64,000 nt of DNA from Patescibacteria group bacterium (GCA_041659045.1 JBAZZB010000001.1:390111-454110), one strand, 5' to 3'. Counted from the first letter of the stretch, positions 1-28,322 are shown. The notes: a model not told the origin generated them from the letters alone. A program made the numbers and translations.

Positions 1-1476
1 GATGGTGGTCCAGGAGGCGTCCGTACCGTCAGCGACCAAGTTGCTGTATCCATCCCGTGTAACAGCGGCGCCGTAGCCGAACGTGCGGCCAACAGCCAAA
101 ACATCCGCACCTTCTTCTGTGTAGATCTTGATGGTGTCGTTGGCGCGCGTAGAGCCGCCGACGTTACCCCAGACTTCGTACGTGCGGGTGTTGCCCTTTT
201 CGAGGAGGGTGTTGCCCGTGAGGACGAAAGTCATGCGGTCGCGGTCGTCGAGACCGGCGGCCGAAGCGACTTCGTTACCTGCCGCTTTCAGCTTGAGGTT
301 GGTCAAAGCCGAGCGAGAGACGTTGCCGCTCTGGAAGAGCGTGATGCGCTTAATGTCCAAGTCTTCCGTGGCGCCAGCGGAGAGCTGGAACTCGGCGAGC
401 TTGACGTTCTGCTGACCAACCTTCGGGTTGGTGAGAGAACCAGTCCTCGATATCTCAATTGCACCGACAGTGGCCGAAGCCATCGTCATGTTGTTGCCAG
501 AGACCGGGAGACCGGAAGCGTTCGAGGTGCCGCTCATGACGGAAGTCACCTGGAAGGCGTTGACGTTACCTGCACCTGCCGAGCTCGACATCGTCGCGGC
601 GGCCCACAAAGTGCGGGTCTGGCCGGCGGAGAGGGAGAGCGCGAGGCTGTTGAAAGTGACATCGTTCGACGAGCTGTTGACGGAACGGCCCGTAGTCAGA
701 CGGGTGTTGCCTTCATACAAGTAGACGTTCGAGAAGTCCGTCGAAGCACCGGCGCCCATACGATGGAGGACGACGGAGTCGACAACGACCGACGAACCGG
801 AACCGTTCGAGACGTTGAACTTGACGAAGTTCACGCCCGTCGCATCCTTCGGCACAGTGGCCGAAGACGGAGAGTCGGAAGCGAGGCTGACAGAGACGCC
901 AGAGAGAGACCCCGGAGCGGAGCTCAGGTTCTTGTCCTGGTTGATCGTCTGGGAGCCGCTCATTTCGGCGTTCTTATCGAAGTCGCCGCAAGCATTGATC
1001 GCGTTACCAACCGTGTAGTTGGTGAAGAACGCGTCGGAGATGTCGTCGATCTGCTTGTTCCAAGTGGAACCATAGAGGCAGGAGGCGACAGCTTCGGAAC
1101 CAATAGCGCGGAGAACACCGCCCTTAGCGATGGCGTAGACCTTCGGGTCGGACTGGATCTTGAGCATCTTCACACCCGGGCGATAGGTGACGTTGCCACC
1201 GATCTGGATGGAAGCGAGGTCGGCGTCGGAGATCGTCGTGACGCCGGAGAAGTTCGTGTACCACGTGAAGTACGCTTTGTCGTTTGTGAAGACGTAGCGC
1301 TTCATGTCGGCTCCGCAGTAGTAGACAGCGGAGAGAGAACCCTTGATGAGACTACCGCTCGTGCAGCCGGCGGCAGAGGCCTTCAAAGGGGCAACGAGGA
1401 CAGTAGCCATCACGGACCAAAGAATGGTCGAGAGGACAACGCCCATCGTCAGAGTTTTTTTCAATGCGTTAGGCAT
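1..1476 (-). CDS. Large secreted surface protein, partial (3' end runs off the window). It has an N-terminal signal peptide, then a conserved ~105-aa module (VYYCGADMKRYVFTNDKAYFTWYTNFSG...GGVLRAIG...LYG..W), then a Ser/Thr/Gly-rich beta-rich region.
   Basis: I translated the minus strand by hand from ATG at 1476 (MPNALKKTLTMGVVLSTILWSVMATVLVAPLKASAAG...); the frame reaches nt 1 with no stop. The plus-strand ORFs in the track (128-1494) are antisense artefacts. The module is shared with CDS 2325-6698 and 26310-28322. Confidence 0.6.
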   Translation of the reverse strand, partial: MPNALKKTLTMGVVLSTILWSVMATVLVAPLKASAAGCTSGSLIKGSLSAVYYCGADMKRYVFTNDKAYFTWYTNFSGVTTISDADLASIQIGGNVTYRPGVKMLKIQSDPKVYAIAKGGVLRAIGSEAVASCLYGSTWNKQIDDISDAFFTNYTVGNAINACGDFDKNAEMSGSQTINQDKNLSSAPGSLSGVSVSLASDSPSSATVPKDATGVNFVKFNVSNGSGSSVVVDSVVLHRMGAGASTDFSNVYLYEGNTRLTTGRSVNSSSNDVTFNSLALSLSAGQTRTLWAAATMSSSAGAGNVNAFQVTSVMSGTSNASGLPVSGNNMTMASATVGAIEISRTGSLTNPKVGQQNVKLAEFQLSAGATEDLDIKRITLFQSGNVSRSALTNLKLKAAGNEVASAAGLDDRDRMTFVLTGNTLLEKGNTRTYEVWGNVGGSTRANDTIKIYTEEGADVLAVGRTFGYGAAVTRDGYSNLVADGTDASWTTI

Positions 1477-1544
1477 ATGAAATTCATTAATTAAGGTCAT
1501 ATCTAAAAGAAAGCGAGAATTACAAGCTATAACGGATTCGAGAA

Positions 1545-1580
1545 AAAAGCAAATCGAAAACGGCCGCTTGTGGCGGCCGT
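1545..1580 (-). terminator. Rho-independent terminator for the Zn-ribbon gene: GC hairpin cggccgccacaagcggccg followed by TTTTCGATTT on the minus strand.
   Basis: Inverted repeat at 1561-1579 with a T-run read on the minus strand, directly 3' of the stop at 1587. Confidence 0.5.
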
Positions 1581-1586
1581 GTTTCG

Positions 1587-26126: not shown

Positions 26127-26159
26127 ACGTGGGTCGCCCCACACGCTTGCTCATGGCTC
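26127..26159. repeat. 33-nt direct repeat spanning the last 6 nt of tRNA-Asn (incl. CCA) and 27 nt of 3' flank; partner of 17984-18016. Putative attR-like boundary.
   Basis: acgtgggtcgccccacacgcTtgctcatggctc. Confidence 0.55.
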
Positions 26160-26228
26160 CGAGGCTGGGATTCGAACCCAGGACCAATAGATTAACAGTC
26201 TACTGCTCTACCGCTGAGCTACCTCGGA
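26154..26228 (-). tRNA. tRNA-Asn (anticodon GTT), 75 nt, with genomically encoded CCA.
   Basis: Hand-folded cloverleaf: acceptor TCCGAGG/CCTCGGA; D-arm GCTC/GAGC; anticodon stem GTAGA/TCTAT with loop CTGTTAA; T-arm CTGGG-TTCGAAT-CCCAG; discriminator G then CCA. Confidence 0.8.
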
Positions 26229-26309
26229 ACGGACCGGAACGGGGATACTATAGCACTGGGCTTAAATATTTCAAGTCCTGGCGTTGTGTGGTAAAATCCA
26301 ATCAAATTC

Positions 26310-28322
26310 TTGCCATTTATGCAACATCCCCGTCTCCTTCTGGCAGCCGCCTCGCTGGGTCTCCTGGCGTCCGTCTTGCCCGTCTCGGCCGCTTCCGGCG
26401 ACGTCGCTTCGATTGCGCTGCGCGACTTCAATCGCAACGGCAAAATCGATCGCGCCGTCATCTCGTTCGCGAACCCGTCTCTTACCAACTGGACTGTCCG
26501 CGGGATGTCCGGTTTCAACGTCACGTATAAGGGCCAGGCCGTCGCGGTTTCTGATGCCTTCATGGCATCGACCTCGGACCCGGCGGTTCTCGAAGTTGTG
26601 CTGGAAGAAAGCGACGCGCGCCTCATGACCGACACGTCCGCGACCGACTTCGAAGTGTCCTACGCGCGCGTCGGCGTCTCCGCAGGCGTCAGCGACGGTT
26701 CGTCGGAACTCTCCGCGATCGCCACGGGCGACGCAACATCTGCCGCCACGGAACTCGACCAAGCGCCGCCGGTTCTTGTCTCTTCCACGCCGGAACCGGG
26801 CGCTGTCGATTTCCTGCGTGCCGAGCAAGTGACGCTGACCTTCAGCGAACCGATCAACCGCGAGACGCTTGTGATCAGCTCCTCGAGCAATCCTGGCGGT
26901 TGGTTCTACGCTTGGATCGGCGAAGGTCGCACGGTCACCGTGCAACACGACGTCTATCAGCGCAACACCGTTGAAACCTTCGGCGCGACGGTGAAAGACC
27001 TCTCGGGCAACGCGCTCGTGACCGACACCTATCCCAACCCGTTTACCTTCCAAACGTCGAGTGACAACACGCCGAACCCGAGCACGGACGAACTTCTCTT
27101 GATCACCTCCCCTGTTTCCGGTTCCGCCCTCACCGTTGGCGAAGCGACGCCGATCGCCTGGTACACCAACATGCCCGCCGCGGCTTCCGTCATCCTTTCC
27201 TACTCGACGGACGTCGGAGCGACATGGACCTCGATCGCCACAGTCCCCGCTTCTCAAAAAGTGTACATGTGGTACCCGCCGAGGATCAGCGGTGCTCTGC
27301 AGCTGAAAGCCGAAGCGCGCAGTGCCAGCAACACGTTCGTAAACCTCTCAATCGTCGGTACCTTCACGACCGTCGGCAGCGCATCCGTTTCCCCGCTCCG
27401 CGCCGTTTCCGCCGTGGAAGTGACCCAATCAACGGCGACGTCCATGACTTCCGTCGTGCGCCTCGACCGCACGCCATCAACCGCCGTTTTCTCCTGCAAT
27501 AATGGCGCGCTCACGGCCCCTGTCGTCGTCACGGGTGACCGCCCGGTACGCTTGTCCGCCACGCTTTCCAACTTGGCCGACGGCACGTCATACACCTGTG
27601 CCTTCGCGCTGACCGACGCCGCAGGTGCCTCGTTCTCACTCGCAGCTCCGACATTCGTTGCTGGCGAAGATACGAAAGCACCTGAACTCACCGGAGCGGC
27701 AGTCGTCGATCTCTACGACGCCGCAGCTGGCACGGCACGCCTCAGCTGGACGACGAACGAAGCGACGACAGCTACCGTGAGCTACGGCGCGTATCTCAAC
27801 TACGGCAGCTCGGCTGCCAGCACCGCACTGACTGGAGCGCACAGCGTCACGCTCTCGGGCCTCACGCCCGGTGCTATGCATCAGGCACGCATCACGTCGA
27901 TCGACGCCAAGGGCAATGCCTCTGTCTCGAAGGATTTCTACTTCGTCTTCCTGCGCGAGAATGATCTCGTCAAAGGCACGGGTGCGGCGGTCTATTGGTA
28001 CAAAGGCGGCAAGCGCTACGCTTTCCCCAACCTCGACACCTATCGCTCTTGGTTCGGCAACGACTTCTCGAAAGTCCTGCGCGTACCTGACACGCAACTC
28101 GGCACGATTGCGCTCGGCGGCAACGTGAAGATGAAAGAAGGTGTCTACATGATCAAGATTCAAAGCGATCCAAAGACGTATGCCGTCGAAGGGAATGGCG
28201 TGCTCCGCTGGATTCCGACAGAAGAACGCGCTCGTGCGCTCTACGGCGCCGCATGGGCCACGCGCGTGCGTGACGTCGACGTGAGCCTCTTCACCGATTA
28301 CACCATCGGCGATCCACTCTAA
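26310..28322 (+). CDS. Secreted protein with Ig/FN3-like beta domains and the shared C-terminal ~105-aa module.
   Basis: Signal peptide MQHPRLLLAAASLGLLASVLPVSAASG. The C-terminus VYWYKGGKRYAFPNLDTYRSWFGNDFS...GVLRWIPTEERARALYGAAW aligns with the modules in CDS 1-1476 and 2325-6698. Confidence 0.7.
   Translation: MPFMQHPRLLLAAASLGLLASVLPVSAASGDVASIALRDFNRNGKIDRAVISFANPSLTNWTVRGMSGFNVTYKGQAVAVSDAFMASTSDPAVLEVVLEESDARLMTDTSATDFEVSYARVGVSAGVSDGSSELSAIATGDATSAATELDQAPPVLVSSTPEPGAVDFLRAEQVTLTFSEPINRETLVISSSSNPGGWFYAWIGEGRTVTVQHDVYQRNTVETFGATVKDLSGNALVTDTYPNPFTFQTSSDNTPNPSTDELLLITSPVSGSALTVGEATPIAWYTNMPAAASVILSYSTDVGATWTSIATVPASQKVYMWYPPRISGALQLKAEARSASNTFVNLSIVGTFTTVGSASVSPLRAVSAVEVTQSTATSMTSVVRLDRTPSTAVFSCNNGALTAPVVVTGDRPVRLSATLSNLADGTSYTCAFALTDAAGASFSLAAPTFVAGEDTKAPELTGAAVVDLYDAAAGTARLSWTTNEATTATVSYGAYLNYGSSAASTALTGAHSVTLSGLTPGAMHQARITSIDAKGNASVSKDFYFVFLRENDLVKGTGAAVYWYKGGKRYAFPNLDTYRSWFGNDFSKVLRVPDTQLGTIALGGNVKMKEGVYMIKIQSDPKTYAVEGNGVLRWIPTEERARALYGAAWATRVRDVDVSLFTDYTIGDPL

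Follow-up and report, generated by a model that had tools for sequence, protein, structure and literature searches.

The window analysed here is a 64,000-nucleotide stretch of DNA from a Patescibacteria group bacterium (GCA_041659045.1 JBAZZB010000001.1:390111-454110). A search of its six-frame translation with a profile hidden Markov model (HMM) of the copies themselves shows that it encodes three copies of one module, each in a different secreted protein, here called p1, p2 and p3. The coding sequences, the modules and the short elements that accompany them are as follows, with lengths in amino acids (aa).

1-1476, minus strand: p1, partial coding sequence (first 492 aa) running off the window start; signal peptide, module, long Ser/Thr-rich region
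1372-1476, minus strand: signal-peptide-like N-terminus of p1 (MPNALKKTLTMGVVLSTILWSVMATVLVAPLKASA), read from the sequence
997-1368, minus strand: module copy 1, p1 aa 37-160 (hmmsearch envelope and translation); N-terminal type, with a Cys pair (GC..., YYC)
925-948, minus strand: accessory motif TINQDKNL; its start lies 17 aa downstream of module copy 1
2325-6767, minus strand: p2; N-terminal hydrophobic segment, Kelch-repeat propeller region, DUF7507/DUF11-like repeat, accessory motif, module, PG_binding_1
3021-3044, minus strand: accessory motif TISADKSL, upstream of module copy 2
2601-2999, minus strand: module copy 2, 133 aa, before PG_binding_1; with the Cys pair and a 9-aa insert, 'ESDGNPATQ', between strands 1 and 2
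2346-2513, minus strand: PG_binding_1 at the p2 C-terminus (Pfam PF01471, E 2.1e-12, aa 1419-1474)
26310-28322, plus strand: p3, 670 aa; signal peptide, Big_5 Ig-like domain, weak fn3 match, C-terminal module
27951-28319, plus strand: module copy 3, the last 123 residues of p3; C-terminal type, lacking both cysteines and the accessory motif

A preliminary description of this DNA had placed the module directly after the signal peptide of the coding sequence at 1-1476, ahead of the peptidoglycan-binding domain of a 1458-aa Kelch protein, and at the C-terminus of a 670-aa protein with FN3 and Ig-like domains. All three placements hold, while several particulars of the host proteins need correction. 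The p1 coding sequence lies on the minus strand and is truncated by the window edge; its start codon is confirmed by the near-identical N-terminus of a full-length relative, P0130 (1235 aa), and its Ser/Thr-rich region has no Pfam match. Counted from its first ATG, p2 is 1480 aa long, or 1457 aa in the deposited form, which starts at M24 (P0128, identical to MFA5853872.1), derives from a Patescibacteria metagenome-assembled genome (MAG) and is named 'peptidoglycan-binding protein [Patescibacteria group bacterium]'. A single open reading frame (ORF) at 1587-2252 on the minus strand, encoding two treble-clef zinc-finger units (Pfam zf_Tbcl_2, E 1e-31), separates p2 from p1. For p3, the true start of which is likely the ATG at 26319, Big_5 passes its curated Pfam cut-off comfortably (45.2 against 23.6 bits), whereas fn3 remains below threshold (21.4 against 25 bits). 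The N-termini of all three proteins, as read from the sequence, are hydrophobic and signal-peptide-like, and p3 ends in '...DYTIGDPL' without a hydrophobic tail.

The similarity among the three copies is far beyond chance. All three translations carry the module's motif, and pairwise BLASTP of module against module gives identities of 48.5, 44.5 and 44.2% with E values of 9e-44, 3e-35 and 2e-31, respectively, so that the proposal of a shared module survives the significance check on which it depended. The conserved unit is, however, 123-133 aa long and not ~105 aa as first proposed. With the module removed, p1, p2 and p3 show no shared similarity by BLASTP (best E 0.72), as expected of otherwise unrelated hosts, and the module can be regarded as a genuine mobile domain shuffled among secreted proteins. 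The three copies are old and not the product of recent duplication, because blastn finds no mutual similarity in their DNA. The insert that lengthens copy 2 is also present in the homologues P0032 and P0090. No fourth copy was found in the window, where the next best six-frame match to the HMM had an E value of 2.3.

No curated family covers the module. Neither Pfam-A nor NCBIfam has a model over it in the three window proteins at E<=1, and HMMs for SLH, LysM, SH3b, CW_binding_1/2, GW, WxL, SPOR and PG_binding_1-3 do not match the module region. When 76 family members were compared with Pfam at E<=5, the significant matches were all to passenger domains, and only scattered sub-threshold noise fell over the module; recurring weak matches to NdhS, AstE_AspA_hybrid and Lactococcin (E >= 0.008) were dismissed as part of that noise. 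The family itself is large: among the representatives of clusters formed at 50% identity, 4,754 are matched by a three-copy profile at E<=1e-3 and 1,977 at E<=1e-30. All named matches in a word-indexed protein search are labelled Patescibacteria, including Uhrbacteria and Veblenbacteria, and when GTDB was sampled at one genome per species, 98 loci were confirmed, with at least three copies in several genomes and with Uhrbacteria, Falkowbacteria, Parcubacteria, Paceibacter or 'Patescibacteria group' as the informative titles. Many module-bearing MAG contigs from third-party assemblies (among L003-L075) carry the title 'uncultured Gammaproteobacteria bacterium', with 'Candidatus Binatia' or 'Vicinamibacterales' on a few others. 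Such names may be placeholders or reflect errors in binning, and they are suspect because all other evidence puts the family in Patescibacteria. The family is essentially cellular: tblastn found no match among 50,697 INPHARED phage records, and IMG/VR gave a single matching locus, on which grounds a phage origin of the module was rejected. A literature search found no paper describing this domain or tying EccB, the actinobacterial protein discussed below, to Patescibacteria.

The position of the module within its host proteins was surveyed for 281 instances in 268 retrieved proteins. The module is N-terminal in 108 instances, starting ~20-57 aa into the protein, lies no more than 30 aa from the C-terminus in 70, and is close to both ends in 90 that represent stand-alone genes or fragments; only 8 are internal. 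Two copies occur in 13 of the 268 proteins, at both ends in some and in tandem in others, and there are stand-alone proteins composed of a signal peptide and the module. A hydrophobic N-terminus is present in 183 of 236 Met-initiated members (~78%). Across distant lineages, more than 40 module positions are at least 85% conserved, many of them aromatic, with a pattern of Lys, Tyr and Arg-aromatic that recurs in both halves. A further pair of sites, one two residues before the first strand and the other after 'VYY', holds both cysteines in 93 instances, neither in 145 and a single one in 4 (Fisher p 2e-62, uncorrected for phylogeny). This covariation fits a disulfide formed outside the cytoplasm, and MdbA-like disulfide oxidoreductases have been reported as enriched in bacteria of the candidate phyla radiation (CPR), to which the name Patescibacteria corresponds (PMC6744442). 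From the signal peptides and the covarying cysteines together we infer that the module is extracytoplasmic.

The module is accompanied by an accessory motif, [ST]-I-[NS]-x-D-K-x-L (TINxDKxL), at a fixed spacing, also in homologues such as P0012, P0019, P0121 and P0016: beyond N-terminal modules its start is exactly 17 aa away (59 cases), and ahead of C-terminal modules 15-18 aa (29 cases). In 129,085 surveyed residues, 88 of the 89 occurrences of a loose form of the pattern adjoin a module. The motif always lies between module and passenger in fusion proteins, degenerate versions end the stand-alone module proteins, and no motif was found in p3. It may serve as a structural cap or as a site for attachment or processing. 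P0090 (157 aa), which may be a fourth module protein encoded elsewhere in the same genome, opens with the motif ('MATIDSDKGL...') and has no signal peptide; for these reasons its annotated start is probably wrong, and the protein may be the C-terminus of a larger one.

A conserved short motif at fixed spacing, always between module and passenger in fusions, is what would be expected if the module were a tag for secretion, sorting or processing comparable to those of the LPXTG/sortase, type IX C-terminal domain (CTD) or PEP-CTERM systems, with TINxDKxL as the cleavage or attachment site. We regard this as very improbable. Known sorting signals are position-specific, whereas the module occupies either terminus (108 N-terminal against 70 C-terminal instances), and it is a well-folded domain of 125 aa as opposed to a short signal; moreover, the motif also occurs in stand-alone module proteins that have no passenger, and p3 does without it. 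The module does not show the combination of fixed C-terminal position, cleavage motif and hydrophobic tail that marks a terminal sorting signal.

The passengers are diverse. Pfam scans of 89 mid-sized members identified Big_1, Big_5, Big_7, Flg_new_2, Ice_binding, Peptidase_S8, Trypsin_2, GH44, Beta_helix and PG_binding_1, and the separate scan of 76 members added Peptidase_M23 in 6 and Cupredoxin_1 in 4. A recurrent class of ~270-aa proteins consists of a signal peptide, the module, the motif and a type-1-copper cupredoxin, a layout that suggests extracellular blue-copper proteins with the module as their tether. Genes for such proteins were seen at L024, L035, L042, L046, L049, L038 and L077, at about 3800-5600 in each. 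They are often tandem paralogues or follow the gene for a 480-640-aa module protein with Cys-containing Ig-like repeats. More generally, two or three module genes are adjacent at 20 of 81 related loci. The p1 family forms another class of ~1200-aa proteins with an N-terminal module, in which 30 members, including P0130 and P0135, align over their full length. These 30 have almost no Pfam matches and no recognised anchor domain. Beyond its module, P0130 is rich in Ser, Thr, Ala, Gly and Val and poor in Cys, and its C-terminus shows neither a hydrophobic tail nor an LPXTG-like motif. On this composition and architecture, the p1 family is a candidate for a major surface or S-layer protein of these bacteria.

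The combination of an M23 peptidase with the module recalls lysostaphin-like enzymes, which pair a catalytic domain with a wall-targeting domain, and raises the question of whether the module recognises the wall of a host cell and delivers adhesins and lytic enzymes to it. Patescibacteria are largely episymbionts, CPR-enriched families are thought to serve cell-cell interaction (PMC6744442), and the module fold, described below, resembles the wall-binding domains of phage endolysins. Several observations nevertheless make such targeting improbable. The cupredoxin fusions make sense as retained redox proteins and not as cargo directed at a host; the high conservation of the module across distant lineages would be unexpected if its ligands were diverse host walls; and in the ~1200-aa family, which has no other recognised anchor, nothing else was identified that would hold the protein to its producer.

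To place the module among known folds, its structure was predicted from copy 3 with AlphaFold2 and a 76-sequence alignment, which gave a high-confidence model (predicted local distance difference test, pLDDT, 96.0; predicted template modelling score, pTM, 0.84). The model comprises two tandem beta-beta-beta-alpha-beta-alpha repeats, with DSSP assigning the order E-E-E-H-E-H twice. By sequence, the first half matches the second only weakly (hhalign E 0.024 over 53 columns), and an internal duplication is accepted because the predicted structure also shows two repeats. Foldseek comparison of the whole module with the PDB returned the periplasmic domains of EccB1 and EccB5, components of type VII (ESX) secretion, as its top 10 matches (E 3e-3, probability 0.75-0.99); superposed as a whole the structures fit poorly, since module and EccB differ in the relative orientation of their repeats. 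When the second repeat was modelled alone (pLDDT 86), 11 of the 12 top matches were repeats of EccB1, EccB3 or EccB5, with TMq of 0.58-0.67 and a root-mean-square deviation (rmsd) of 2.5-5.0, mostly 2.5-3.2, over 57-65 columns. The twelfth was the wall-binding domain of the endolysin LysIME-EF1 (6ist_A; TMq 0.51, TMt 0.48, rmsd 5.1, probability 0.44), and all later matches had TMq <=0.33. The predicted models display the defining features of an EccB-type repeat, a three- to four-stranded sheet and two helices within 50-60 aa, in agreement with the published description of the EccB repeats. Thus, the structural search foreseen in the preliminary description shows that a module without a curated family is no orphan fold, and points to a tandem pair of EccB-type repeats.

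The link to EccB was also sought at the sequence level, in a directed comparison made after the structural match, with a profile of 16 repeats (R1-R4 of EccB1 from M. tuberculosis, EccB1 from M. smegmatis, EccB3 and EccB5) from four proteins; the M. tuberculosis EccB1 periplasmic sequence used is 100% identical to PDB 3x3m_A. Module repeat 1 aligns to this profile with an hhalign score of 18.2 (P 0.003) over 60 in-register columns, a score reached by none of 150 column shuffles (null 8.1 +/- 1.7, maximum 14.0), while repeat 2 scores 12.8 (P 0.05), which 6 of 150 shuffles reached. The module HMM places 'SAVYY..GKRYVFPN' against 'SMYYIDPQGVRYGVPN' of EccB1 R4, with an E value of 7e-4 in a directed hmmsearch of a one-sequence database. 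In database-wide profile searches of PDB sequences the EccB signal is too weak to surface, and a profile of repeat 2 only finds nothing meaningful there. The profile signal appears real and is suggestive, though too weak by itself to establish homology. The best E value of the whole-module PDB profile search (9e-5) fell to antibody heavy chains and nanobodies, which were rejected as chance matches because strand 2 of the module (~1315-1335, minus strand, 'SAVYYCG') mimics the 'AVYYC' of immunoglobulin framework 3; this stretch is a trap for automated annotation. PF05108 (T7SS_ESX1_EccB) has no match in the three window proteins and a single sub-threshold match among the 76 members (E 0.025), and no ESX or FtsK-like EccC match was found among 23 window ORFs scanned. 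With no PF05108 match, two repeats and not four, and no core, the module falls outside the EccB family proper. Taken together, the predicted structure and the profiles suggest that two EccB-type repeats in tandem make up the module, and that their profile-level link to the EccB of Actinobacteria, though weak, is reproducible.

The same structural relatives open the possibility that the module is a protein-protein docking or oligomerisation unit, the repeats of which bind other proteins, be it in an S-layer lattice or a surface scaffold, or associate with further module copies to build a surface complex. EccB sits inside ESX periplasmic and inner-membrane assemblies, as the titles of the PDB entries state, the repeats of EccB1 are published as packing against each other through their N-terminal helices, and the cell-wall-binding domain (CBD) of LysIME-EF1 is, according to its published structure, an obligate tetramer. 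The tandem clustering of module genes, the 13 proteins with two module copies and the existence of stand-alone proteins with a signal peptide and the module are all compatible with such a role. However, in the compact high-confidence model the two repeats already pack within one chain, using the interface through which EccB repeats pair; the fusions to M23 and PG_binding_1 point to the wall; and a surface complex would still need some component attaching it to the cell, and none was identified. Docking therefore seems to us rather unlikely, if a more serious contender than either delivery to a host wall or sorting.

We lean, if only somewhat, towards the module being non-catalytic and serving to keep secreted proteins at the envelope, a binding role deduced from fold and architecture. 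The module is an autonomous domain of ~125 residues, built from two repeats of predicted EccB type, that in Patescibacteria has been joined to one or the other terminus of a wide range of Sec-exported proteins. According to this proposal it would act outside the cytoplasm, where, once exported, it would attach by non-covalent contacts to the Gram-positive-like envelope of the producing cell, either to peptidoglycan or to a wall-associated polymer, and so keep its passenger at the cell surface where it might otherwise diffuse away. The passengers retained in this manner would include arrays of Ig-like or Kelch units, proteases, M23 wall hydrolases and blue-copper proteins. Retention is favoured because the joining of many different passengers to one terminal module is an anchor-like pattern, because the module is fused to M23 wall hydrolases and PG_binding_1, because a small redox protein such as a cupredoxin would need to be held at the surface to be of use, because the ~1200-aa p1 family has no other recognised anchor, and because the fold resembles that of wall-binding domains.

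Several points weigh against envelope retention. Peptidoglycan binding by EccB is itself only a hypothesis (PMC4769845), the EccB of the PDB matches is, by entry title, part of an ESX periplasmic assembly, and its repeats may simply be structural. All module structures are predictions, the E values of the single-repeat Foldseek matches are individually weak (0.05-1), and the likeness to experimentally validated wall-binding domains is borderline, as the values for 6ist_A given above indicate; annotated endolysins in BFVD likewise match weakly (E 0.3-1.6). Because p2 already possesses PG_binding_1, the module would there be superfluous as another binder of peptidoglycan if both had the same ligand. 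Finally, the module has no basic charge bias (median isoelectric point, pI, 7.25; net charge 0), and there is therefore no electrostatic hint of anionic-polymer binding; the idea of a basic module binding such a polymer was not supported.

With these reservations, the novelty of the module is best placed at the level of the sequence family; its fold and its functional kind, that of a surface-anchoring, envelope-associated repeat module, are both known. Among the roles that the preliminary description had offered, anchoring would remain, as suggested by fold, partners and terminal position, whereas the occurrence of the module at either protein end makes a sorting signal unlikely, and a substrate-binding cassette is disfavoured because the passengers include non-enzymes such as cupredoxins and Ig-like arrays. 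A broader and bolder scheme, which we consider doubtful, would have the module serve as a general surface-display system of much of Patescibacteria, a counterpart of SLH and CWB2 that binds a lineage-specific wall polymer, with the ~1200-aa p1 family as S-layer or major surface protein, TINxDKxL as a new attachment or processing element, and EccB built from the same ancient envelope-binding repeat of monoderms.

The remainder of the window contains further features of note. A large serine recombinase (22022-23326, plus strand) is followed by an 895-aa protein with a PHP domain and an SMC/AAA ATPase (23349-26036, minus strand), and a tRNA-Asn gene (26154-26228, minus strand) lies beside them, directly upstream of p3; at this tRNA site, the region 22022-26228 may represent an integrated element or carry a defence gene. 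Assembly genes of a type IV pilus or a system like type II secretion (T2SS) comprise T2SSF (44508-45716, minus strand) and a T2SSE ATPase (46112-47863, minus strand), and in their vicinity two large ORFs that match nothing in Pfam encode 1405 aa (50855-55072, minus strand) and 477 aa (55069-56502, minus strand).

A considerable part of bacterial diversity falls within Patescibacteria. Most of these bacteria have not been cultured and live attached to another cell, and almost nothing is known of their surface biology. One domain of ~125 aa that marks thousands of their exported proteins offers a marker for the surface proteome in metagenomes, as a search with the module picks out adhesin-like arrays, proteases, wall hydrolases and extracellular blue-copper proteins. 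Absent from both Pfam and NCBIfam, the family deserves a definition of its own. If the module does bind the wall, it could furthermore become a reagent with which to label or capture Patescibacteria cells. The EccB link, for its part, suggests that the periplasmic part of a type VII core protein may derive from a widespread envelope-associated repeat, which bears on the role of the EccB repeats.

Among known systems, the periplasmic repeats R1-R4 of EccB, a core component of type VII (ESX) secretion (PDB 3x3m, 4kk7, 5cyu, 6sgy and 7np7; PF05108), are the best and nearly exclusive PDB match of the module. The two share a repeat fold of ~55 aa with a small sheet and two helices, the packing of repeats in pairs and a weak in-register profile similarity, and both are extracytoplasmic parts in bacteria without a classical Gram-negative envelope. 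In contrast to EccB, which has an N-terminal transmembrane helix, four repeats and a central beta-sheet core, the module has two repeats, no core and no EccB-type membrane anchor. EccB is encoded with EccC, EccD, EccE and MycP, whereas no ESX genes were recognised among the window ORFs scanned; EccB is a dedicated subunit of a secretion machine in Actinobacteria, whereas the module is a mobile domain with many passengers in Patescibacteria.

The CBDs of the endolysins LysIME-EF1/Lys170 (PDB 6ist) and PlyCB (PDB 4f87), the first of which supplied the only match other than EccB in the top 12, resemble the module in their four-stranded sheet with two helices, and endolysins and some module proteins alike are fused to a wall hydrolase, M23 in the module family. 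They differ in that the structural match is borderline, in that no sequence similarity was found in the tblastn search of phage records, IMG/VR yielding one locus, in that endolysin CBDs are single units forming rings whereas the module holds two units in one chain, and in that most module passengers are not lysins. Like SLH, CWB2, LysM, SH3b, GW, WxL and PG_binding_1, the classical anchors that attach proteins non-covalently to the surface of monoderm bacteria, the module sits terminally in proteins with a signal peptide, has many paralogues in a genome, joins very diverse passengers and occasionally stands alone, but its fold differs from theirs, no HMM of theirs matches it, and in p2 it coexists with PG_binding_1. 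The best structural match of the whole module anywhere, and its best viral match, is A0A1I9SA71, an uncharacterised 115-aa protein of Rhodococcus phage Weasels2 (TM 0.71-0.75, E 8e-7, 124 columns) with only 14% identity; because it matches the entire module in predicted structure, the two-repeat unit probably exists outside Patescibacteria as well.

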